A stretch of DNA of 21,730 nt from the NCBI GenBank assembly GCA_046497275.1, contig JAWOFX010000013.1, positions 1-21,730 of the forward strand, written 5' to 3'. This document shows, in pieces, positions 1-17,623 of the stretch (position 1 is its first letter; each line of letters begins with the position of its first letter). Origin of the DNA: Promethearchaeia archaeon (GTDB lineage Archaea; Asgardarchaeota; Lokiarchaeia; Sigyniarchaeales; SOKP01). The notes beneath the pieces are model-generated. The model was given only the letters and a program-made list of their open reading frames with translations. It had not been told where the DNA came from and did not search any database. The translations under genes and the position numbers were made by a program.

Positions 1-315
1 TCTCTGTGTCATAGATGTACAGAACGATGCCCAAAAAATGTAGATTATTCATTCATTTTAACGTTACTCAGAAATCTTGCAGTTGATGAGGGAAGTGTTC
101 CTGATGAATATTTAGCAACCCTTCAAACGGTAAGTGAAAATGGGTTTGTTGTACCCTATTCTGGAAGAATGAAAGATACTATCGATAGAAGACGTGAAAA
201 AATGAACCTACCTCAGATAGAACCACCCAATTTAAATGAAGTTAATTTTATTATTGAAGATACAGGTTTAGGACATTTACTTAAAAAAGAAAATACAAAG
301 GAGGAGAAAAAATAA
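1..315 (+). CDS. hdrC: Heterodisulfide reductase subunit C-like ferredoxin protein, C-terminal part (5' end outside window)
   Basis: Frame 1 reads SLCHRCTERCPKNVDYSFILTLLRNLAV...EEKK* without interruption. It shows the tail of a CxxCxxCxxxCP [4Fe-4S] motif and an LRNLA segment typical of HdrC. Its TAA overlaps the hdrB ATG (TAATG, 313-317). Not in the supplied ORF track. Confidence 0.85.
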   Translation, partial: SLCHRCTERCPKNVDYSFILTLLRNLAVDEGSVPDEYLATLQTVSENGFVVPYSGRMKDTIDRRREKMNLPQIEPPNLNEVNFIIEDTGLGHLLKKENTKEEKK

Positions 316-1193
316 TGGAATATGCATTGTATTTAGGATGTACAATCCCTTTAAAAAATCTTAATTTTGAATATGCCTTTCGGGAAGTTAGCAAAAAACT
401 TGAAATAGATTTCAAAGAAATGCCAGGTGCTAGTTGTTGTCCCGATCCAATTGCTATTCAATCTTTAAATGTTGATACATGGTTAACTTTGGGTGCAAGG
501 AATTTAAGCATTGCTGAGAAGATGGGCTTAGATATTTTTACTGTATGTTCTGGATGTTATGAAACTTTGAAAACGGTAAATGTATTATTAGAAGAAGATG
601 AAGATGCATTTAAAAGAGTAAATAAAACTCTAAAAAAAATTGGGTATGAATATAAAGGTACTCAGAAGGTAACACATTTTGCTGAAGTGTTCAGCAGCGA
701 TGAGATGCTTGAAAAAATAAAGGAAAAAATCGTGAACCCTTTAGATGGATTGAATATCGCTGCACATTATGGATGTCATCTCATAAGACCATCTAAAATT
801 ATGCAATTTGACGATCCAGAACGACCTGAAACATTAGATAAGATTTTAGAAGTTCTTGGGGCAAACACTTTAAATTTTTCTACGAAATTAGAGTGTTGCG
901 GCTATTGTGCCAGATTAAACGAAGAAATTGGATTTGATCTCGTAGAACAAAAAATGGAAGATTTAGCTCATCTTGATACGGATGTTGATGCTTTAGTTGC
1001 TGTGTGCCCTGCTTGTGTCAATCAATACGACAGAAAAGAAAGACGATTGCAAAGGGATTTTGAAGAACTCGATATCCCAGTACTTTATTTACCAGAATTA
1101 ATGGCTGTTGCGTTTGGTATTGATATAGACACACTTGACTTTAAGAGACATGCGATAAAACCAGATAAATTGATTGAAAAATTAAAAGCATGA
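315..1193 (+). CDS. hdrB: Heterodisulfide reductase subunit B (two CCG domains)
   Basis: YLGCTIP, SCCPDP, CSGCY, HYGCH, ECCG and VCPAC supply all ten Cys of the two non-cubane [4Fe-4S] sites. 292 aa, translationally coupled to hdrC. Confidence 0.93.
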   Translation: MEYALYLGCTIPLKNLNFEYAFREVSKKLEIDFKEMPGASCCPDPIAIQSLNVDTWLTLGARNLSIAEKMGLDIFTVCSGCYETLKTVNVLLEEDEDAFKRVNKTLKKIGYEYKGTQKVTHFAEVFSSDEMLEKIKEKIVNPLDGLNIAAHYGCHLIRPSKIMQFDDPERPETLDKILEVLGANTLNFSTKLECCGYCARLNEEIGFDLVEQKMEDLAHLDTDVDALVAVCPACVNQYDRKERRLQRDFEELDIPVLYLPELMAVAFGIDIDTLDFKRHAIKPDKLIEKLKA

Positions 1194-1282
1194 AGAATTA
1201 ATTAAAATTTTTTTACAAAATATCAAAATAATCGAATTTAAAAAACAAAAAAGTGATTTTAAAAAAAAGTGGAATTGGAAAA

Positions 1283-1978
1283 ATGATAATAACACAACAA
1301 AAAGATATTGATGAGATATATGGAATGGTAGAACCATATAATAAAATATTAATCGCTGGATGCGATGGATGTTGCCAACCACCGCGCTCTATTGAACAAG
1401 CTCGTTTACTTGGTGAATTATTAGAATTAAAAGCAAAAAGTGAAGGAAAGAAACTTGAGTGGAGAGCCATCACAGTTTTAAGACAATGTGATGATAGAAT
1501 TACCGCTACTACTGTAAGACCGTATGTAGAAGAATACGATGCAATTGTGTCTCTCGCATGCGGGTTGGGAGTAGTAATGATGAATAGGGTATTCGAGGAC
1601 ATTTTAACTTTTCCCGCGCAAGATAGTATGTTTGCAGGAGCTGAAAATGCTGGAGAGAATTATTATGCAGAATATTGTGAGGAATGTGGGGAATGTCTTC
1701 TTGCTGAAACTGGAGGGGTTTGTCCCATGGCAGGATGCGCAAAGCATCTGAGTAATGGACCGTGTGGAGGAATGGTTGATGGAATGTGTGAAGTTGGGGA
1801 CTATACTCATGAATGTGCATGGGTTAAAATCTGGGAGCGTTTGAAAAAGTTTGATAGGTTAGATCTATTTAAAAAATATCGTCCACCACGAGATTATAGA
1901 CTACGGACCTCACCAAGTTTCATTGAAATAAATAAAGAATATACCAATGAACAACCTGAACAAGAGGCGAAAGAATAA
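1283..1978 (+). CDS. metV: Methylene-tetrahydrofolate reductase small Fe-S subunit MetV (copy 1)
   Basis: MIITQQKD start (ATG 1283, preferred over the track's 1253), RQCD, LACGLG and the Cys-rich CEECGECLLAETGGVCPMAGCAKHLSNGPCGG...CEV...ECAW of the MTHFR C-terminal-like domain. Directly upstream of metF. Confidence 0.88.
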   Translation: MIITQQKDIDEIYGMVEPYNKILIAGCDGCCQPPRSIEQARLLGELLELKAKSEGKKLEWRAITVLRQCDDRITATTVRPYVEEYDAIVSLACGLGVVMMNRVFEDILTFPAQDSMFAGAENAGENYYAEYCEECGECLLAETGGVCPMAGCAKHLSNGPCGGMVDGMCEVGDYTHECAWVKIWERLKKFDRLDLFKKYRPPRDYRLRTSPSFIEINKEYTNEQPEQEAKE

Positions 1979-1979
1979 A

Positions 1980-2933
1980 ATGGGAAATCGACCAGCTTAT
2001 AGTAATTTATGTAAGAAAATTGAGGAAGGACATTTTGTATTTACTGGAGAACTCGAGCCTAAAAAGATCTTGGATCTTGAAGAAATCATCGAATCTGCCA
2101 AAATTATGAGAGAAACCAAAAAGATCGCAGCGGCAAATGTTACAGATGGCCCCCAAGGAGACGCATATATGTGTTCAATGGTACCAAGCTATAAAGTTCA
2201 AGAGGAAGCGGGTATTGAGGCAGTATGGCAAGTGACAGTTCGTGATAGAAATCGTGTCGCTCTTTTCGCTGATGTTTTAGGAGCGGCAGTGATGGGACTT
2301 AAAAATATACTAGTTTTAACTGGTGATCACACTGCTTTAGGAGATCATAAGAGAGGAAGAGCTGTATATGACCTTGATAGCACCCAGTTTTGTGATATGC
2401 TTGGTAAGATGATTGACGAAGGTACAGACCTCAATGGTAATGAACTCAAAGGTGGAAAAATTGAGATGAATTATGGATGCGTTGCGAACCCAAACAGTAA
2501 TCCCAGAGAACCCGAGATCTTAAAAGTAGGTAGAAAAGTAGAGCAAGGAGTGGACTTCATTCAAACACAGACTGCATTCGATATTGATGAAGCGAAAGAA
2601 TTTCTTAAAGAATTGGAGCAATTTAATGTACCTGTTTTACTTGGAATCTTTCCGCTAAAATCCCATGGTATTGCATGGTATTTCGATAATTATATCCCTG
2701 GAGTGAGTGTTCCAAAAGACTTACTAAAATCTCTCAAAACCGCTGAAAAAGAAAATAAAGGAGACAAGCCTGCGAAATATGCTGCTATCGATAAGATTAA
2801 TATAGAATTTTTCAAGCCTTTTATCGAAGAGATCAGGAAAACAACGAAAGCAGCAGGTATTCATTGTATGGCAGTTGAATATGAACGACTTTTTGACCCT
2901 CTCCTTAAAGAGTTTGAAGAATACGCCTATTAA
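1980..2933 (+). CDS. metF: Methylenetetrahydrofolate reductase MetF (copy 1)
   Basis: TGELEP, NVTDGP, QVTVRDRN, LTGDH, ANPN, FIQTQ and GIHCM motifs of the MTHFR flavoprotein. ATG 1980 lies 1 nt after the metV stop; the track start at 1947 would overlap metV. Confidence 0.92.
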   Translation: MGNRPAYSNLCKKIEEGHFVFTGELEPKKILDLEEIIESAKIMRETKKIAAANVTDGPQGDAYMCSMVPSYKVQEEAGIEAVWQVTVRDRNRVALFADVLGAAVMGLKNILVLTGDHTALGDHKRGRAVYDLDSTQFCDMLGKMIDEGTDLNGNELKGGKIEMNYGCVANPNSNPREPEILKVGRKVEQGVDFIQTQTAFDIDEAKEFLKELEQFNVPVLLGIFPLKSHGIAWYFDNYIPGVSVPKDLLKSLKTAEKENKGDKPAKYAAIDKINIEFFKPFIEEIRKTTKAAGIHCMAVEYERLFDPLLKEFEEYAY

Positions 2934-3085: not shown

Positions 3086-3550
3086 ATGATGAAAAATTTA
3101 GATAAAAAAGATAAAATAATACTTGAAATGTTGATTGAGGATTCAAGAAGACCCTATAGAGAAATCGCAGATGAGGTGGATCTTTCTGAATCCACGGTTC
3201 GAAAGCGAGTAATAAAACTACAAGAGGATGGAGTAATAGAGAAATTTACAATTAAAGTGTGTAGAGAAGAGGAAAGATGCATTATGGCGTTCGTGACACT
3301 TATCCCAAAATCACAGGGTGAAATTAAGGAACTCCTCCGAGAGACGCAAGTATTACCAGAGTGCGAAGAGGTGTATTTTCTAGCTGGAGAATGCGGAGTT
3401 CTTCTAAAAGTAACTGTACCAGAAATAAACGAATTAGATGCATTGCTGGAATCATTTCGTGCACGAAGCGATGTGCGTAGCGTAGAACGTGTTTGCGTGG
3501 TACTAAAGCCTATAAAATCCCCCTCACCGCAGAATGGCGCAATCAGATAA
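3086..3550 (+). CDS. Lrp/AsnC family transcriptional regulator
   Basis: LDKKDKIILEMLIEDSRRPYREIADEVDLSESTVRKRVIKLQEDGVIEKFTI wHTH followed by a RAM-like domain. GGTGTGAG SD-like sequence upstream. Confidence 0.9.
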   Translation: MMKNLDKKDKIILEMLIEDSRRPYREIADEVDLSESTVRKRVIKLQEDGVIEKFTIKVCREEERCIMAFVTLIPKSQGEIKELLRETQVLPECEEVYFLAGECGVLLKVTVPEINELDALLESFRARSDVRSVERVCVVLKPIKSPSPQNGAIR

Positions 3551-3925: not shown

Positions 3926-5275
3926 TTGGATACTGTTTTTGAAGAGGCTCGAGAAACGAAAGTATTTGATAGTGTTGATGTTCTGGTCTGTGGTGGAGGT
4001 TCATCAGGAATCTTCGCAGCACTTGCAGCAGCAAAACATGGGGCCGATACTTTTTTAATTGAGCAAGAAGGGTTTCTTGGAGGTACAGCTACCTCCTACT
4101 TAGTAAATCCAATTCCCGAGATGATGGGGAAAGGTGGATTGATTCAAGAATTTATGGACCGAATGGCAGAGAATGGAGGATATATAAAACATAATCCATC
4201 CGAGGTAGAATACGATTTCTCACTTGCAAATACATATGATGTAGAGATCTTCAAATATATTGCACAAGAGATGTTAGATGAAGCTGGTGTTAAAATACTT
4301 TTGCATACACCCGCAGTAAAACCAGTGGTGGAGAAAAATGTCATAAAAGGGGTTATTTTCGAAAATAAATCTGGTAGGCAAGCAATTCTTGCGAAACGTG
4401 TTATCGACTGTACCGGTGATGGAGACATTGCCGCTCGAGCAGGGGTTCCTTATGATAAAGGAAGAAAAAAAGATGATCTTATGCCTTCAGTCTCCTTGCT
4501 TTTTCATCTTCATAATGAAAATGACCTTGATAAGTTACCTGTGACTCCATTCGGTGGTATTTTCCTTCTCAGTCCTCTCATGAAGAAAATAGCAAGGAAA
4601 GAGAAAATAGATTACAAATTACCCTACGATGTTGCTTTTCTTGTTCCTATGCCAGTGAGTCCTGGAAAACATTTGATAAACCTTGCCCATGTAAAGAATA
4701 TTGATGGAACAAATGCAGAAGATTTAACTCGTGCCCATATAATCTCGCGAAGACAAATTATGGAGGCAAAAAAAGTCCTTCGGCATCATCCATACTTTAG
4801 TTCTGCGTACGTTGCAAATACAGGAACACATATTTATGTAAGAGAAACCAGACGCATTAATGGGGAATATTATATAACTGAGGAAGATGCGCTTGGAGGA
4901 CGGCAGTTTGATGATGCAATCACCTCATGTGGGTATATGATCGATGTTCATCCCCTTGATAAAAGCGAAACGGGAAGATATGAAAATCATCCCCCATTTG
5001 ATATTCCATATAGAACTCTCGTACCTCTCAAAATCGACAATTTATTGGTCGCAGGACGTTGCATCTCCTCTGATCGAGTTGCTCAATCCGCTCTTAGAAT
5101 TGGTGGTACATGCATGAGTACTGGAGAGGCGGCAGGTACAGCGGCTACGCTCTCTATCCAAGAGAATCTAAATCCACGGGAAATTGATGGAAAAATCATT
5201 CGTAGAGCTTTAGAGGAACGTGGAGTCTTCATCAGAACCGAGAAAAACACTACTCCAGAAAAATGTATGTTTTAA
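3926..5275 (+). CDS. FAD-dependent oxidoreductase (FAD_oxidored/PF12831-like family), substrate unknown
   Basis: DVLVCGGGSSGIFAALAAAKHG...LIEQEGFLGG FAD-binding motif, IDCTGDGDIAARAG, VRETRRINGEY, FDIPYRTLVP, NLLVAGRCIS and GEAAGTAA. TTG start with a strong SD. Confidence 0.85.
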   Translation: MDTVFEEARETKVFDSVDVLVCGGGSSGIFAALAAAKHGADTFLIEQEGFLGGTATSYLVNPIPEMMGKGGLIQEFMDRMAENGGYIKHNPSEVEYDFSLANTYDVEIFKYIAQEMLDEAGVKILLHTPAVKPVVEKNVIKGVIFENKSGRQAILAKRVIDCTGDGDIAARAGVPYDKGRKKDDLMPSVSLLFHLHNENDLDKLPVTPFGGIFLLSPLMKKIARKEKIDYKLPYDVAFLVPMPVSPGKHLINLAHVKNIDGTNAEDLTRAHIISRRQIMEAKKVLRHHPYFSSAYVANTGTHIYVRETRRINGEYYITEEDALGGRQFDDAITSCGYMIDVHPLDKSETGRYENHPPFDIPYRTLVPLKIDNLLVAGRCISSDRVAQSALRIGGTCMSTGEAAGTAATLSIQENLNPREIDGKIIRRALEERGVFIRTEKNTTPEKCMF

Positions 5276-5326
5276 TTTTATAGTGAAAAAACTCATCTAT
5301 ATAAAAACGAACCAAAAAACACTATT

Positions 5327-6838
5327 ATGAAACTTAGCAGATTAAAGGTCTTAACAGGCGATGATTTAAAAGAAATTCACGAGACCACTATAGAATTATT
5401 AGAAGATGTGGGTATTAGAGTTGAAAGTGAGGAGATCAGGGTTTTACTTAAGAAATACGGTGCTCTTATTAACGAAGAAAAAAAGGGGGAATTCGTAAAA
5501 TTTCCAAGAAATTTGATCATGGAGAGTATTAAGAAAGTTCCAAAAGAATTTAGTTTATGGGGACCAGACGGCTCATATAATTTTACCATAAACACCTCAT
5601 CCACTAAATTTGGGACATTTGGCGCAGCAATTAATATATATGATCCTTCCCGTAAGAAAGAAATAAGGAAATCGAAATTAGAAGACACTATAAACCATAT
5701 AAGAGTGGTTAATGAATTAGAGAATATTGACTGTTCCCATATGGACGTGTGGCCAAGTGATGTTCCATTTACCGAACTTCATTTTCATACCTTAAGAGAA
5801 TGGGGAAGATATGCCAAAAAACCTTATGGAATGGGATGTTATGGAAGAACGGCTTCTTTAGATATGATTAAAATTGCCTCTATCATAAGTGGAAATATTG
5901 AAGAGATCCAGAAACGACCCCGTCTTTTAGGTGTTTTCAATCCCACTTCTCCATTAACTCTTCCTAAAATTTTATTAAATGGATTAGAAATATTTGCGAA
6001 ATTTGGACAACCAATAAATATTTCAGCAGCAGCGTTAGCAGGATCGAGTGCTCCAGTTACCTTAGCAGGCGTCTTAATACAAGCAAATATGGAAGTGCTC
6101 TCAGCGATTGTTATCACTCAACTTATAAATCCCGGAACTCCTGTTCTGTATGGTTCAACGAATACTATTATGGATCCATCAACAGGAAACCCTGCATATG
6201 GCTCCATAGAGATGGGGTTAATAACTATTGGAAGTGCCCAACTTACAGATTTTTATGGTATCCCCTCAAAAGGATCGGGTGCTCTTACGGAATCTAAATG
6301 CTTTGACATTCAAAATGGGTATGAACGTTTTATGACGCTCTTCTGTGCAGCAAATGCTGGTCATAATTATGTGACTTGTGCGGGAACCTATGAAACATCA
6401 TTAAGTGAAGCTTTGGAATTACTTGCTATTGATGATGAACTTATTGGAGTAATTAAGCGCGGAATGGACGGATTTCAAGTCAACGAATATACTCTCGCAA
6501 AACAAGAAATACGAGATATTGCAAATGGAATCCGAAAATCCTATTTAGGCACAAAACATTCTGTTAAGTTTACCCGTAAAGAAATCTTTAATCCTTCTCT
6601 AATTGATAGAAATCGTCGAGGGTTATGGATTAAGAATGGTCGGCAGGATATGTTTGAACGCGCACAAGAAAAAATCGAACAAATATTAAATGAATCAATC
6701 GAATCTAAGCTCACAAAAATTATTGAATCAGAGCTTAACGAGTACTACAAAATTATCTCGGACCGAAACCTGCAAGATTATAAAAAAAATGAGGGAATGG
6801 AAGATTCTGATGGAGATCTTAACATGTTAGGAGTATAA
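5327..6838 (+). CDS. mttB: Trimethylamine methyltransferase (MttB) superfamily protein, non-pyrrolysine type
   Basis: 503 aa. IHETTIELLEDVGI, SPL, AGSSAPVTLAGVLIQANMEVLSAIVITQLINPGTPVLYG, YGIPS and IDDEL...GI-type motifs. No in-frame TAG. The symbol denotes the family; the substrate is unknown. Confidence 0.88.
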   Translation: MKLSRLKVLTGDDLKEIHETTIELLEDVGIRVESEEIRVLLKKYGALINEEKKGEFVKFPRNLIMESIKKVPKEFSLWGPDGSYNFTINTSSTKFGTFGAAINIYDPSRKKEIRKSKLEDTINHIRVVNELENIDCSHMDVWPSDVPFTELHFHTLREWGRYAKKPYGMGCYGRTASLDMIKIASIISGNIEEIQKRPRLLGVFNPTSPLTLPKILLNGLEIFAKFGQPINISAAALAGSSAPVTLAGVLIQANMEVLSAIVITQLINPGTPVLYGSTNTIMDPSTGNPAYGSIEMGLITIGSAQLTDFYGIPSKGSGALTESKCFDIQNGYERFMTLFCAANAGHNYVTCAGTYETSLSEALELLAIDDELIGVIKRGMDGFQVNEYTLAKQEIRDIANGIRKSYLGTKHSVKFTRKEIFNPSLIDRNRRGLWIKNGRQDMFERAQEKIEQILNESIESKLTKIIESELNEYYKIISDRNLQDYKKNEGMEDSDGDLNMLGV

Positions 6839-6901
6839 GATAATTTCCCTCAGATTTCTTACTTTAGAAAAACTTATTAATTTCATAAGTGAAATACTAT
6901 T

Positions 6902-8245
6902 ATGAATGAAGAAGTACCTTATAATCGTTCTTACACCTTTATTTTCACATTATTTTACTTTTGCCAAGGATTTGTCCAAGGAGTACCATTCCTAGTTTGG
7001 CGACCATATATAGCTGATGTTTTAGAAGATGAATTTAGTATTGCATTATGGGGAATTGTCTATGCGATTGGGAATCTCCCGTGGGCAATAAAAATGATTG
7101 TGGGAATCTTTAATGATAAAATTGGCTCGAAAAAATATGGACGTCGATTTCCATGGATAATAAGTTTCGGGATCTTTGGGTCTATATGGTGGTTTATGAT
7201 AGCTGTTTATCTACCTATTAATGAATCAATCTATCTTTGGATGACATTATACTATTTTATGACACAACTGGGAATGGCTTTTGCCGATACTGCTTTAGAC
7301 GGGCTTATTTTGGATGTAACACCTAAAAGAAAATTAGGAAGAGTCCAAGGATATACGTGGACTGTAATGTTTTTAGGGTATGGTGTTGGTGGAATGTTGT
7401 TAACGCTTATTTTAGGATTGGAGAATCTTTATATTGTCCATATAATAACAGGAATTTTAATGGTAATTTCTTGTATTCTTCCCTACAAGATAAAAGAACC
7501 AGAACTCAAAGAAGTCCCATTAAAAGAATTTGGTAAAGATTTATTAACCTTTGCCACAAATAAAAGAAATTGGAAGGTCTATGCTTATACATTTTTAGGA
7601 GCATTCCAAGGAGTAATGTTGTTAGATTTCTTAACTTATACCATATTGATTTCCATGGGTGTGATAGAAGTTCAAGAAACAATCGCGCATATAGTTGGAG
7701 GTGGAGCTATTGAATTATTAGGTTGGAGTACACTATTCTATTTTGCAAGTGGGGTGGGTACAGTCATAGGTTCCTTAATATCTGGTAAATTTGGAGATGT
7801 AAGTAGGAAAAGAACAATATCATCCGTTTATTTGACATTTATTCCATATTGTCTTCTCTTAGTATTGCCATTTGCTTTTACAACGAATTTTTATATAGCA
7901 TTAGTTTTTGGTATTACTTTCCAAATCCTATTTGGAGGGATACAAAATGCATTAATGGTTGTCAATCAAACTATTCGTGGGGATTTGTCAAGAAATTATT
8001 ATCCAAATTTGAAGAGTACATATTTCGCACTTATAGTTTCATTAATAAATTTGGGACAAAATGTAGGAACCTTAATAGGAGCAGCTCTGTTGTCATTTCT
8101 AGTGTTATTTATAGATAACTTCTTTCTTAATGCGTTTATAATATCAGCTTTTTGCGCTCTTAGTCTATTAATTGCCTTTTTAACTTTTAGAACAATAGAT
8201 CCACTCGATTATGAGCTACAATTTGCATTGAAAAAGGATATTTAA
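6902..8245 (+). CDS. Major facilitator superfamily transporter (AmpG/BT1-like motifs)
   Basis: About 12 hydrophobic segments; LPWAIKMIVGIFNDK...GRRFPW loop motif, AFADTALDG, and GKFGD..SRKR in the second half. Confidence 0.88.
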   Translation: MNEEVPYNRSYTFIFTLFYFCQGFVQGVPFLVWRPYIADVLEDEFSIALWGIVYAIGNLPWAIKMIVGIFNDKIGSKKYGRRFPWIISFGIFGSIWWFMIAVYLPINESIYLWMTLYYFMTQLGMAFADTALDGLILDVTPKRKLGRVQGYTWTVMFLGYGVGGMLLTLILGLENLYIVHIITGILMVISCILPYKIKEPELKEVPLKEFGKDLLTFATNKRNWKVYAYTFLGAFQGVMLLDFLTYTILISMGVIEVQETIAHIVGGGAIELLGWSTLFYFASGVGTVIGSLISGKFGDVSRKRTISSVYLTFIPYCLLLVLPFAFTTNFYIALVFGITFQILFGGIQNALMVVNQTIRGDLSRNYYPNLKSTYFALIVSLINLGQNVGTLIGAALLSFLVLFIDNFFLNAFIISAFCALSLLIAFLTFRTIDPLDYELQFALKKDI

Positions 8246-10996: not shown

Positions 10997-11617
10997 TTGA
11001 AGATGGAAATAAATAATTTAGATCAATCAGTAGAGAAGGAAGGAGAGCAATTAAAGCGAAAAAGGTATCCAGAAGATACAAAAGAAAGAGAATTTGAAGG
11101 CTTTTTTAAATCCTCAATTATAGAGATTACTAATAAAGGATGTACGTCTTTATATGATAAATATTCTAAAGAATTAATCCATCATGATTCTAACAAACCT
11201 ACAGGAGTAACATTTCATATTAAAAATGTGTGGTGGAATAATAACCTCTATAAGTTAGAAATATGGTTCATAGAACCAAAAGGAAGATTTGAGTTTGTAT
11301 TACCTAACTATCTAAGATTGAGTTCTATAGTAGCTTTTGTAATTAATTATTATGATCAAAAAACTCTCTATAAATTGAAGGAATTAGTGTATTTAATTAA
11401 AAAAGAATATGAAAGATTGCCAATTTTATTGGCTTTCAATGTCGATAGTAAAGGGGAATTATCATTGGATAATCGTGATGAAATAATAGAGTATGCAATG
11501 AAGATAGGAATGAACGCTTATATTGAGATATCGGTGAAATCAGGACAAAATATCGAAGAACTATTTAAAGCATTAGTACAACTCTGTTTAAAAAAATTAA
11601 GTGGTCATTCAGATTAA
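10997..11617 (+). CDS. Rab/Ras-like small GTPase-fold protein with degenerate G1/G3/G4 motifs (possible pseudo-GTPase)
   Basis: Collinear with Rab motifs: FKSSIIEITNKGCTSL, KPTGVTFHIK, KLEIWFIEPKGRF, PILLAFNVD and YIEISVKSGQNIEELFKAL. The start may be ATG 11003 rather than TTG 10997. Confidence 0.75.
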   Translation: MKMEINNLDQSVEKEGEQLKRKRYPEDTKEREFEGFFKSSIIEITNKGCTSLYDKYSKELIHHDSNKPTGVTFHIKNVWWNNNLYKLEIWFIEPKGRFEFVLPNYLRLSSIVAFVINYYDQKTLYKLKELVYLIKKEYERLPILLAFNVDSKGELSLDNRDEIIEYAMKIGMNAYIEISVKSGQNIEELFKALVQLCLKKLSGHSD

Positions 11618-14358: not shown

Positions 14359-15030
14359 ATGGTTGTTATTACTACGGCCAAGCCTGACGAGGAAGTTTTC
14401 GAGGCACTTGAAAGATGGGATATAAAAAAAGCAGTAATTGTATCTTGTGGTGTATGTGCCGCTCTTTGTCAGACTGGTGGTACAGAAGGATTGGAAAGAT
14501 GGACGAAAAAGCTTGAGGAACATGGCATTCAAGTCACAGCGGGAATCGTAAGTGATGATGTATGTGATAATCGTGTAATGATGAAGGATTTGCGAAAAAT
14601 AGATGACGAATTAGCACAATCCGATGGCATCTTAACCTTAAGTTGTGGTCTTGGAGAACAATCTCTTATTGAAGTATTGAAAAGAAAATATCCTAAAATG
14701 CCCGTTATTATAGCAAATAATACTGAATTTATGGGTATGACCGAACGTATTGGTCGTTTTTATATGAGATGTCGAGGATGTGGAGATTGCTTATTGAATG
14801 AAACAGGTGGTATTTGTCCAATAACAACTTGTGCAAAATCCCTTATGAATGGCCCTTGTGGGGGAATGGTTGAAGGAATGTGCGAAGTTGATAATTATGA
14901 ACGAGATTGTGGATGGGTATTAATCTACAATCGATTAAAAGAAGTGGGACGACTTGATTTATTTGAAAAATTACGAGAATCCTTTGATTGGTCTGAACGC
15001 GGCCATCAAAGAGAAGTGGTATTTAGATAG
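14359..15030 (+). CDS. metV: Methylene-tetrahydrofolate reductase small Fe-S subunit MetV (copy 2)
   Basis: SCGVCAALCQTGG, DVCD, LSCGLG and CRGCGDCLLNETGGICPITTCAKSLMNGPCGG...CEV...DCGW. Directly upstream of metF. Confidence 0.9.
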   Translation: MVVITTAKPDEEVFEALERWDIKKAVIVSCGVCAALCQTGGTEGLERWTKKLEEHGIQVTAGIVSDDVCDNRVMMKDLRKIDDELAQSDGILTLSCGLGEQSLIEVLKRKYPKMPVIIANNTEFMGMTERIGRFYMRCRGCGDCLLNETGGICPITTCAKSLMNGPCGGMVEGMCEVDNYERDCGWVLIYNRLKEVGRLDLFEKLRESFDWSERGHQREVVFR

Positions 15031-15036
15031 GAGGTG
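15029..15036 (+). promoter_or_regulatory. Shine-Dalgarno site for metF copy 2
   Basis: AGGAGGTG overlapping the metV2 stop, 10 nt before ATG 15047. Confidence 0.7.
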
Positions 15037-15046
15037 TAAATAAAAA

Positions 15047-15970
15047 ATGGCATATTCAAAATTAGGAGAAATGTTAGAGAAGGGCGAGTTCATCTTGACT
15101 GGTGAACTTGAACCAGAAAAAACATGCGATCTTTCTCATACTATTCATGAAGCTGAGGAAATGGCTCCTTATGTAGTTGCGGCAAACGTTACAGACAGTC
15201 CTTTAGGAATCGTGACGATAAATTCAATGGCGGCGTCTCACATCATTCAAAAAGAAACGGGATTAGAAGTCATTTGGCAATTAACAGTTCGAGATGTGAA
15301 TAAATTAGGAATTGCTGGAATGGTTATGGGTGGACATGCTCTTGGTCTTAGAAATATTTTATCTCTTACAGGCGATCATCCCGCAATGGGAGATGTTCCA
15401 GAATCAAAACCTGTATTCGATTTAGATTCAGCAACCTTATGTAAACTTATTCGAGAAATGGTGGATGAGGGTAAAATTAATGGTCATGAGATTGAATGCC
15501 CTCCCACACTTCACGTAGGAGCTGCGGCTAACCCAAATGCTGATCCAATGGGTGCTGAGGTATTAAAAATCGGTAGAAAAGCAAAGGCTGGCGCAGAATT
15601 TATTCAAACTCAAGTAGTTTATGACTTAGATAGGACAATTGAGTTCCTTCGAGAAATAAAAAAATATAATGTGCCGGTGCTTTTAGGAATCTTTCCAATG
15701 AAGAGTTACGGGTTCGCTAAGGGTTTTGATGAGTTTGTACCAGGCGTTTCCGTTCCACCAGATATTCTAGCGAAATGGAAATCAATCAAAAAAGAAATTT
15801 CTGACAAAAAGGAACAAAAAGCAGCCTATGATCAAGCAAACTATGAATTCTTCGATCCATTTATCAAAGAATTGCGTAAAAAGGGATTGCTTGCCGGAAT
15901 TCACTGTATGGCGGTTCATTACCCCAGAATATTCCCAAAACTTCAGAAAGTAATAGATGAATCAAGTTAA
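15047..15970 (+). CDS. metF: Methylenetetrahydrofolate reductase MetF (copy 2)
   Basis: TGELEP, NVTDSP, QLTVRDVN, LTGDH, ANPN, FIQTQ and GIHCM motifs; clear paralogue of 1980..2933. Confidence 0.92.
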   Translation: MAYSKLGEMLEKGEFILTGELEPEKTCDLSHTIHEAEEMAPYVVAANVTDSPLGIVTINSMAASHIIQKETGLEVIWQLTVRDVNKLGIAGMVMGGHALGLRNILSLTGDHPAMGDVPESKPVFDLDSATLCKLIREMVDEGKINGHEIECPPTLHVGAAANPNADPMGAEVLKIGRKAKAGAEFIQTQVVYDLDRTIEFLREIKKYNVPVLLGIFPMKSYGFAKGFDEFVPGVSVPPDILAKWKSIKKEISDKKEQKAAYDQANYEFFDPFIKELRKKGLLAGIHCMAVHYPRIFPKLQKVIDESS

Positions 15971-15988
15971 ATCGAGATGTAACTCTTA

Positions 15989-16003
15989 TTTTTTTATTTT
16001 TTT
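15989..16003 (+). terminator. Oligo-T tract after metF2, candidate terminator
   Basis: TTTTTTTATTTTTTT about 19 nt after the stop codon. Confidence 0.45.
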
Positions 16004-16123
16004 ATCATTTTCCACTTCTTCTTATACCAAATGTAAATTCAGATCATATTCTAAAACGGAAAGTATCTAATTTTTTATTCCATTAGTAAAAACTTTAAAA
16101 AGTAGTAAACATCAACAAAGTGT

Positions 16124-17623
16124 ATGAAAAACTACGACTTTGTGGTAATTGGCTCTGGAGTAGGATTAAGCGTTTTGAATACAGCACTTAATCAGAATTT
16201 GGATTGTGCTCTCATAGAGAACGATAAGATAGGAGGAACATGCTTAACACGAGGATGCATTCCATCAAAAGTTCTTGTATATCCCGCAGATATCATAAGA
16301 GAAGCCCATCATGCGAAAAAAGTTGGTGTTGAATTGAAAACAAAAACTGTCGATTGGGATCTTATTTCAAAAAGAATGTGGAGTCAAATTAATGAAGGTA
16401 AAGAAATGAAGGAGGGGCTTTCTCAGGTATCTAACCTTGATTTATATCTAGGACGCGGTGAATTCACTGATGAATATGAAATGGAAGTCTTCAATAAGGA
16501 AAATGAAAGCATGGGTAACTTCAAAGCTGACAAATATCTGCTTGCATCAGGAGCCCGGTCATTGATCCCCCCGATAGAAGGACTTGAACAGGTCGGTTAC
16601 GTCACAAGTGAAACTTTTTTTGGTGAAAAATTCCCCAAAAAACCATGGAAAAGTCTTATCATAATTGGGGGAGGAATCATAGCGGCTGAATTCGCGCACA
16701 TATTTTCAGCAATGGGAACAGAAGTGGCTATTATTGAGATGTTGCCTCGATTAGTCTCAACAGAGGAACCCGAAATAAGTGAGATTTTAGAACAGAATTA
16801 TCGTCGATTTATGAATGTATTAGTGAATAAAAGAGCTATTAAAGTGAAAAAAGGGAAAACCGTTGTTTACCGTGATACAGAAACAGAAAGCGAAGATGAA
16901 ATATCTGCTGAAGAAATTTTGGTAGCAACTGGGCGAAAATCTAACGCTGATTTGCTAAAAGTGGAAAACACTGGAGTGGAAGTAGATGAGAAACAATGGA
17001 TTAAAACAGATGAATTTCTCCAGACCTCAAAGAAAAATATTTGGTGTATAGGAGATGCGAATGGAAAATATATGTTTAGACACAAGGGAAATTATGAATC
17101 GGAAATAGTCACCTACAATATTTTTGGCCCCGAAGACCAAAAACGAAGGGCAGATTATTCTGCTGTTCCGTGGGCAATTTATAGTTACCCTCAAATCGGC
17201 CATGTGGGTATGACTCAAAAAGAAGCAATTGATAACGGTCATAAAATACTCGTAGCGAAAAAGCGCTATAATTCTGTAGCGAAAGGTTTTGCGATGGGGT
17301 TAGAACAAGGAGATCCCGAGAATGGGATGGTAAAGTTGATAATCGACCAATCTTACAAGATCTTGGGTGCGAATATAATCGGTCCCGCTGCACCTGTGTT
17401 AGTCCAGCAATTTACTTATTTAATGAATTCCGGTTATAGATGTCAAGTACCTGAAGAAGAACCAGCGGATGTTATTCCAAAAGAACAGAGAGCATGTCCC
17501 GAGGCAGGTTCCTTTATGCCCGTGTATAATTCAATGGTTATTCATCCTTCTCTGAATGAGGTTGCTGGCTGGGCTATAGGAAATCTCCAACCAGTTAATA
17601 TTGAACATCATCACCATCATTGA
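16124..17623 (+). CDS. Pyridine nucleotide-disulfide oxidoreductase, class I (dihydrolipoamide dehydrogenase / mycothione reductase-like)
   Basis: GGTCLTRGCIPSK redox-active CxxxxC (C40/C45), GGGIIAAEF NAD(P)H-binding motif, ATGRK, IGD and HPSLNE His-Glu pair. C-terminal HHHHH. Confidence 0.9.
   Translation: MKNYDFVVIGSGVGLSVLNTALNQNLDCALIENDKIGGTCLTRGCIPSKVLVYPADIIREAHHAKKVGVELKTKTVDWDLISKRMWSQINEGKEMKEGLSQVSNLDLYLGRGEFTDEYEMEVFNKENESMGNFKADKYLLASGARSLIPPIEGLEQVGYVTSETFFGEKFPKKPWKSLIIIGGGIIAAEFAHIFSAMGTEVAIIEMLPRLVSTEEPEISEILEQNYRRFMNVLVNKRAIKVKKGKTVVYRDTETESEDEISAEEILVATGRKSNADLLKVENTGVEVDEKQWIKTDEFLQTSKKNIWCIGDANGKYMFRHKGNYESEIVTYNIFGPEDQKRRADYSAVPWAIYSYPQIGHVGMTQKEAIDNGHKILVAKKRYNSVAKGFAMGLEQGDPENGMVKLIIDQSYKILGANIIGPAAPVLVQQFTYLMNSGYRCQVPEEEPADVIPKEQRACPEAGSFMPVYNSMVIHPSLNEVAGWAIGNLQPVNIEHHHHH

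Follow-up and report, generated by a model that had tools for sequence, protein, structure and literature searches.

A conserved hdrA::mvhD-hdrC-hdrB-metV-metF-lrp cluster in Lokiarchaeia, a probable archaeal counterpart of the Hdr-type methylenetetrahydrofolate reductase

Contig JAWOFX010000013.1 of a Promethearchaeia archaeon (assembly GCA_046497275.1) opens within a gene for HdrC, a component of the heterodisulfide reductase (Hdr) family, which is followed by hdrB, metV and metF, with no hdrA or mvhD between hdrB and metV in the window. The arrangement raises the question of whether these genes specify an enzyme complete in itself, or the remaining part of a larger complex whose HdrA and MvhD components are encoded elsewhere. 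The window analyzed here is the entire contig (termed C103), comprising 21,730 bases with a G+C content of ~33%, and belongs to a genome of 188 contigs and 3.85 Mb with an estimated completeness of 98.9%. The original prediction allowed for HdrA and MvhD to be either upstream of the window or absent, of which the former proved to be the case. A conserved Lokiarchaeial set, hdrA::mvhD-hdrC-hdrB-metV-metF-lrp, is represented in the window by its downstream two thirds, and the locus is probably the archaeal equivalent of the Hdr-type (type IV) methylenetetrahydrofolate reductase (MTHFR) of Moorella thermoacetica and Sporomusa ovata.

Since the window is a complete contig, the 5' truncation of hdrC represents an assembly break and not a gene boundary. 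The frame is open from base 1, with no upstream stop, and contains the second CX2CX2CX3CP motif of the protein. A second contig of the same genome, C146, overlaps the first, such that window bases 1-191 are 100% identical to C146 bases 191-1. The minus strand of C146 ends in an open frame of 139 amino acids (aa), the last 63 residues of which match, without a difference, the start of the protein sequence that the window encodes, and a profile search of this N-terminal part of HdrC returned TIGR03290 (E 7.8e-25) as well as Fer4_8 and Fer4_17. Joining C146 (L021 3-419, minus strand) to the window gives a full HdrC of 180 aa with two CX2CX2CX3C (4Fe-4S) motifs. The preceding gene on C146, which stops 2 nt before the hdrC start, codes for an HdrA-MvhD protein of 1163 aa that scores 1196.7 bits against the HdrA2 profile NF040770 (cut-off 1100) and ends in an MvhD/FlpD domain (PF02662, E 4.9e-54). 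In the genome-wide PF02662 search, this MvhD copy appeared at the very start of C146, within a 1170-aa open frame.

The possibility that the 191-bp overlap is a repeat of paralogous loci was ruled out, as a whole-genome search located the stretch in C103 and C146 and nowhere else, and the join is reproduced collinearly by an independent contig. This contig of another assembly (L122, 9,038 bp), retrieved by an exact look-up of HdrB, carries a divergent Ras-like GTPase gene, the 1163-aa HdrA-MvhD, the 180-aa HdrC, an identical HdrB and the start of MetV. It aligns with the reverse complement of C146 joined to C103 over 8,820 bp, spanning the junction, with one mismatch (99.99%). In other samples, a DNA contig of 4,368 nt and two RNA-library contigs extend 3,060, 1,069 and 341 nt, respectively, upstream of window base 1. 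The apparent lack of HdrA and MvhD is thus an artefact of the assembly break rather than biology, and a false lead is removed. C146 and two RNA-library contigs (X4 record 9 and X6 record 25) all terminate exactly at window base 191, a shared end which suggests that the break was caused by the assembly graphs branching at this point between strains.

These results bear directly on the proposal that MetVF and HdrCB alone, with neither HdrA nor MvhD, form a non-bifurcating methyl-tetrahydrofolate (methyl-THF):disulfide oxidoreductase by which methyl groups are oxidized exergonically. The proposal drew on the position of hdrCB immediately upstream of metV, on an HdrB that keeps both disulfide-reducing clusters, and on a redox sketch from -200 mV to -140 mV, both sound as textbook values. 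The test set beforehand was whether hdrA-mvhD lies directly upstream, and because the fusion ends so close to hdrC on the overlapping C146, the HdrA-free enzyme is refuted in the form proposed; as an account of this locus it is extremely improbable. The pull-down experiments in S. ovata also speak against it, in that Strep-MetV bound HdrA and not HdrB; MvhD bound HdrA, HdrB and MetF in these experiments (PMC9430772). Intact HdrB may nevertheless still have a thiol/disulfide role as one branch of the full complex.

The same conclusion emerges from related genomes, surveyed at one genome per species. The 80 nearest loci belong mostly to metagenome-assembled genomes titled Promethearchaeota or Promethearchaeia, with a few other Asgard names and some entries titled only 'uncultured archaeon'; together with the Ras-like GTPases in the window, they bear out the Asgard origin that had been proposed from the letters alone. 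Eight relatives, drawn from seven genera within the family, all carry hdrA::mvhD-hdrC-hdrB-metV-metF-lrp on a single contig (protein identities 56-94%), and the lrp gene follows metF in each of them as well as in ~75 of the 80 nearest loci. The full order is present in 58 of the 80, in a further 6 the contig ends within hdrC or hdrB, and 16 are without hdrCB. An hdrA-mvhD gene precedes hdrC in every one of the Promethearchaeota loci which have this gene order and enough upstream DNA (58/58), and hdrCB-metVF without upstream hdrA-mvhD occurs in 0 of the 80. A survey across Asgard genomes had been suggested as a check on the HdrA-free enzyme, and its outcome is contrary to that model.

Natural variants of the cluster add to this picture. 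In the 16 loci without hdrCB, a gene with an MvhD domain ends 70-113 nt before metV (measured from the end of the tblastn match to the metV start). One such locus, L111 (4545-7277), has in place of HdrA a 910-aa fusion of a GltD/NfnB-like part (Fer4_20 and Pyr_redox_2), a ferredoxin and MvhD, positioned before metVF with no hdrCB. L111 is one of two loci with only a short HdrA-like match before metV, the other being L115 (6591-7220); the identity of the fusion rests on L111. The fusion suggests an NAD(P)H-linked variant which would still be wired through MvhD. Because the variants drop hdrCB and keep an MvhD-bearing flavoprotein, it is the MvhD domain which is the constant neighbour of MetV, and HdrCB which is dispensable, the reverse of what an enzyme composed of MetVF and HdrCB would call for. 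The series, from the full set through the loss of hdrCB to the replacement of HdrA by a GltD-like-MvhD protein, provides a comparative handle on the roles of HdrBC and MvhD in a poorly understood class of enzymes.

The 1163-aa protein is a single-chain pseudo-dimer of HdrA, judging from its domain order, and is closely related to the proteins of the solved methanogen complexes (HdrA, E 4.6e-210; MvhD, E 3e-48). Module 1 (aa 9-454) aligns to residues 146-580 of 5ODC_A, covering the TrxR-like flavin domain and its inserted ferredoxin domain; it keeps the canonical flavin stretch and is devoid of the N-terminal and C-terminal domains. Module 2 (aa ~452-1020) aligns to residues 1-244 and 316-650 of the 5ODC HdrA and consists of an N-terminal domain, a flavin domain in which the insert is missing, and a ferredoxin domain with two clusters at its C-terminal end. 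It is devoid of the Cys-containing DKTFPT..DCSIC stretch, and only one of the two flavin modules is canonical. The MvhD [2Fe-2S] domain (aa 1020-1151) forms the C-terminal end of the chain. Two fused HdrA domains with complementary losses have been described for the Moorella enzyme and for HdrA3/4 of anaerobic methanotrophic archaea (ANME) (Chadwick et al., PMC9012536), and the same fused design for S. ovata and M. thermoacetica (Kremp et al., PMC9430772).

The gene identities and junctions read from the window at first sight (the TAATG overlap, the gaps of 89 and 1 nt, and the ten HdrB cysteines) were confirmed by the sequence, by profiles and by alignment to a protein of solved structure (Table 1). 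HdrB aligns to its counterpart in the solved Methanothermococcus complex (5ODC_B) with an E-value of 1.8e-69, and all ten cysteines of the non-cubane clusters are aligned (motifs lgC, asCCp, vCsgC, hygCh, leCCg and vCpaC). Its score against the equivalog TIGR03288, 277.6 bits, lies under the cut-off of 345.15, which places it outside the CoB-CoM (coenzyme B-coenzyme M) HdrB group as defined by that profile; in fold and clusters it is HdrB-like. It is 56-74% identical to its orthologues in relatives and no more than 45% identical to paralogues. MetV retains 12 invariant cysteines across 78 sequences (C27, C30, C69, C93, C132, C135, C138, C147, C152, C161, C169 and C178), and a sequence search with MetV against solved structures returned no match. 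MetF matches NF006396 (the MTHFR half, E 3.7e-56) and, distantly, the Thermus MTHFR 1V93; all of the 9 orthologues compared share its residues E24, D116 and Q195/Q197. The metV start is supported by 77 aligned relatives with the consensus MIITQQKD and that of metF by 8, and the longer starts in the list of open reading frames, GTG 1253 for metV and ATG 1947 for metF, were dismissed on the basis of these alignments. The gap between metV and metF ranges from -8 to 3 nt in 80 relatives and is 0-1 nt in 67 of these.

Table 1. Features of the window; coordinates are window positions.
Feature	Coordinates	Strand	Details
hdrC, C-terminal 104 codons	1..315	+	5' end cut by contig start; TAA stop 313-315
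hdrC stop/hdrB ATG overlap	313..317		TAATG
hdrB, 292 aa	315..1193	+	two CCG domains, PF02754 E 1.6e-24; stop 1191-1193
hdrB-metV spacer, 89 nt, AT-rich	1194..1282	+	T7 run 1208-1214; GGA-rich ribosome-binding stretch before metV
metV, 231 aa	1283..1978	+	PF12225 E 5.4e-31; Cys-rich Fe-S/Zn partner of MetF; ATG 1283; stop 1976-1978
metF, 317 aa	1980..2933	+	PF02219 E 4e-25; methylene-tetrahydrofolate/-pterin reductase TIM barrel; ATG 1980
Lrp/AsnC-family regulator gene (lrp)	3086..3550	+	HTH_AsnC and AsnC_trans_reg
FAD-dependent oxidoreductase, non-Pyl MttB-family methyltransferase and MFS transporter genes	3926..8245		oxidoreductase PF12831, full length
Ras/Arf-family small GTPase gene	10997..11617		
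Second, diverged metV-metF pair and Lpd-like flavoprotein gene	14359..17623		

The cluster contains three of the features by which an Hdr-type set is recognized: metV and metF are adjacent, hdrA, hdrB, hdrC and mvhD belong to the same cluster, and the enlarged HdrA carries one canonical flavin module. The comparison with the hdrCBA-mvhD-metVF genes of Moorella and Sporomusa was well chosen in the original prediction. Both groups cluster the same six parts (MetF, MetV, HdrA, HdrB, HdrC and MvhD), both have an enlarged HdrA in which just one of the two flavin modules is canonical, and both keep the cofactor motifs of HdrB and HdrC (the bacterial enzyme is that of Mock et al. 2014, as described in PMC9430772 and PMC9012536). 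The Asgard set differs in its order, hdrA-hdrC-hdrB-metV-metF as opposed to hdrC-hdrB-hdrA-mvhD-metV-metF, in the fusion of MvhD to the C-terminus of HdrA, and in the oligo-T tract located between hdrB and metV. In addition, its module 1 retains the inserted ferredoxin domain, which the canonical module in bacterial HdrA reportedly lacks (PMC9430772). The methanogen MvhAGD-HdrABC complexes (PDB 5ODC, 8RVU and 7BKB) contain close relatives of HdrA, HdrB and MvhD, which share the cluster ligands and, as regards module 1, the flavin signature. Unlike them, the Asgard cluster has no MvhA/MvhG hydrogenase genes, presents MetVF where the donor or acceptor module is expected, encodes HdrA as a fused pseudo-dimer and resides in a host without McrA and ComA.

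A third group for comparison comprises the archaeal MetF-MetV pairs of the ANME-1/Bathyarchaeia/Asgard type, together with the clusters of MetFV with HdrA and MvhD noted in Ca. Syntrophoarchaeum (PMC9012536). Archaeal MetVF, enzymes of the tetrahydromethanopterin (H4MPT) route, the lack of Mer and the clustering of HdrA with MvhD are common to them. Compared to the Ca. Syntrophoarchaeum/ANME-1 type, the Asgard cluster adds hdrB and hdrC, is conserved across a whole Lokiarchaeial family and has a second metVF pair nearby. In the literature searched, which yielded only PMC9012536 and general Asgard papers, no description of this cluster in Lokiarchaeia was found.

A plausible mechanism can be outlined from the motifs and the domain order, with the remainder taken from the solved MvhAGD-HdrABC complexes and the S. 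ovata pull-downs. MetF, with its flavin, would convert the C1 carrier between its methylene and methyl states, and MetVF would take the place held by the hydrogenase MvhAG in methanogens. Electrons would pass from the MetF flavin via the Fe-S centres of MetV and the [2Fe-2S] cluster of MvhD to the HdrA flavin, where they may be split or merged: one branch would lead through the inserted ferredoxin domain to ferredoxin, and the other through HdrC and the non-cubane clusters of HdrB to a putative thiol/disulfide. A co-fold of the MvhD domain with MetV (alignments A3 and A2, respectively) scored 0.12 against a mark of 0.32, which is evidence neither way.

The metabolic setting of the cluster can be approached from the gene content of the genome, which holds Ftr in two copies, Mtd (truncated by the end of its contig), a fragment of Mch at a contig end, CdhC and FolD. 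No Mer was found above the TIGR03555 cut-off (best match 140.5 bits versus 348.7), and the genome search revealed no formyl-THF synthetase (Fhs). Because Ftr, Mtd and the Mch fragment are present and both Mer and Fhs are missing, the methyl branch is largely of the methanopterin type, with the Mer step lacking. The MetF of the ANME-1/Bathyarchaeia/Asgard type has been proposed as a replacement for Mer, and the Asgard MetF groups with the ANME-1 type (PMC9012536). By this gene content, the cluster probably replaces Mer in a mostly H4MPT-type Wood-Ljungdahl pathway, and its C1 carrier may thus differ from that of Moorella and Sporomusa. Methyl-THF, the substrate assumed at the outset, is accordingly not established, and MetF may act on a methanopterin derivative rather than on THF. 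An entire Lokiarchaeia-type Asgard family, with Mer-less genomes, possesses a dedicated Hdr-type MetVF cluster with all its parts, which marks the enzyme likely to catalyse the methylene/methyl step of the pathway and a possible site of energy coupling.

Several points weigh against the Hdr-type interpretation. Judging from sequence, the C1 carrier may be either H4MPT or tetrahydrofolate (H4F), and this HdrA has no identified NAD(P)H site. CoM-S-S-CoB, the disulfide considered previously, is an unlikely substrate for HdrB, since neither ComA nor McrA was found in the genome search. MetVF of S. ovata was purified without Hdr proteins and uses reduced ferredoxin (PMC9430772). In 63 of 64 related loci, the first 30 nt after the hdrB stop contain a run of at least five T residues, compared to 4 of 64 for nt 31-60; the tract lies 0-18 nt after the stop in the spacers examined (L042-L107), and its counterpart in the window is the T7 run. 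Oligo-T tracts serve as the intrinsic termination signal of archaea, and the T7 run is accordingly a candidate terminator or attenuator inside a conserved cluster; its conservation argues also against an HdrA-free enzyme of MetVF and HdrCB. RNA-library contigs from one salt-lake metatranscriptome study are 100% identical to hdrC, to the 5' portion of hdrB, and to metV and metF. Among those listed, the contigs on the metV side start at ~1272-1298, X4 and X5 have gaps at ~841-1200, and none bridges the spacer, which a DNA contig does; being contigs, they cannot show transcript ends and may contain DNA, so that gaps and a missing bridge prove nothing. As no more than a hint, they raise the possibility that metVF is a separate transcription unit, read from a start of its own, or that transcripts are terminated only in part after hdrB.

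Such observations would suit a different explanation, in which an Hdr-like bifurcating module ends at the oligo-T tract and metVF, with its own promoter, encodes a ferredoxin-dependent type II MTHFR, their adjacency reflecting shared regulation. Hdr modules are indeed generic in this genome, with 12 MvhD-domain matches and ~22 genes with CCG domains. The adjacency is nevertheless kept over 80 species-level genomes, and the HdrB involved forms a dedicated group of orthologues, well apart in identity from its paralogues. Where hdrCB is lost, moreover, the MvhD-domain gene abuts metV across a short spacer without a T run, and the MvhD domain is not known to have any role except to bridge a partner module to HdrA. 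Considering also that the transcript data are contigs from a single study, two separate neighbouring enzymes are considered unlikely, and the Hdr-type complex is retained as the preferred interpretation.

This interpretation may be extended to a more specific proposal, whereby the full complex would be a flavin-based electron-bifurcating methyl-/methylene-H4MPT oxidoreductase that replaces Mer in Lokiarchaeia. Methyl oxidation would be split between ferredoxin and a putative Asgard heterodisulfide at HdrB, the T tract would tune the stoichiometry of Hdr to MetVF, and in this genus the complex would be fed by the neighbouring MttB of the non-pyrrolysine (non-Pyl) type. The H4MPT couple is near -320 mV, and a bifurcating enzyme acting on it would be analogous to the F420H2-dependent HdrA2B2C2. 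Taken as a whole, the proposal is tentative and rather doubtful. Among the new details of the locus, the conserved T tract and the set of natural variants stand out as the most useful.

The genes that follow lrp code for a flavin adenine dinucleotide (FAD)-dependent oxidoreductase, a non-Pyl MttB-family methyltransferase, whose gene has no in-frame stop, and a transporter of the major facilitator superfamily (MFS). MttB and the MFS transporter follow the cluster only in the relative of the same genus (L035/L042), itself without the FAD gene, and three small MttC-like corrinoid proteins are encoded elsewhere in the genome (C96, C136 and C65). Methyl groups could enter at this level via MttB, which fits the oxidative direction and is no proof of it. 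The second metV-metF pair of the window is 37% and ~47% identical to the first, respectively, and is followed by a gene for a dihydrolipoyl-dehydrogenase-like (Lpd-like) flavoprotein (NF004947, E 1e-153). Many relatives likewise have the pair, at a distance of 5-8 kb downstream from the first cluster.

Genes for small GTPases of the Ras/Arf family, typical of Asgard genomes, occur on both sides of the cluster, one in the window (Table 1) and the other at L021 4432-5112; one flanking gene is divergent and located ~520 nt upstream of hdrA. Elsewhere in the genome, 4 of the 12 MvhD matches (on C124, C171, C109 and C24) contain two in-frame TGA codons each, which is consistent with selenocysteine-containing MvhD/HdrA proteins, as reported in other Asgard archaea (PMC11291895).

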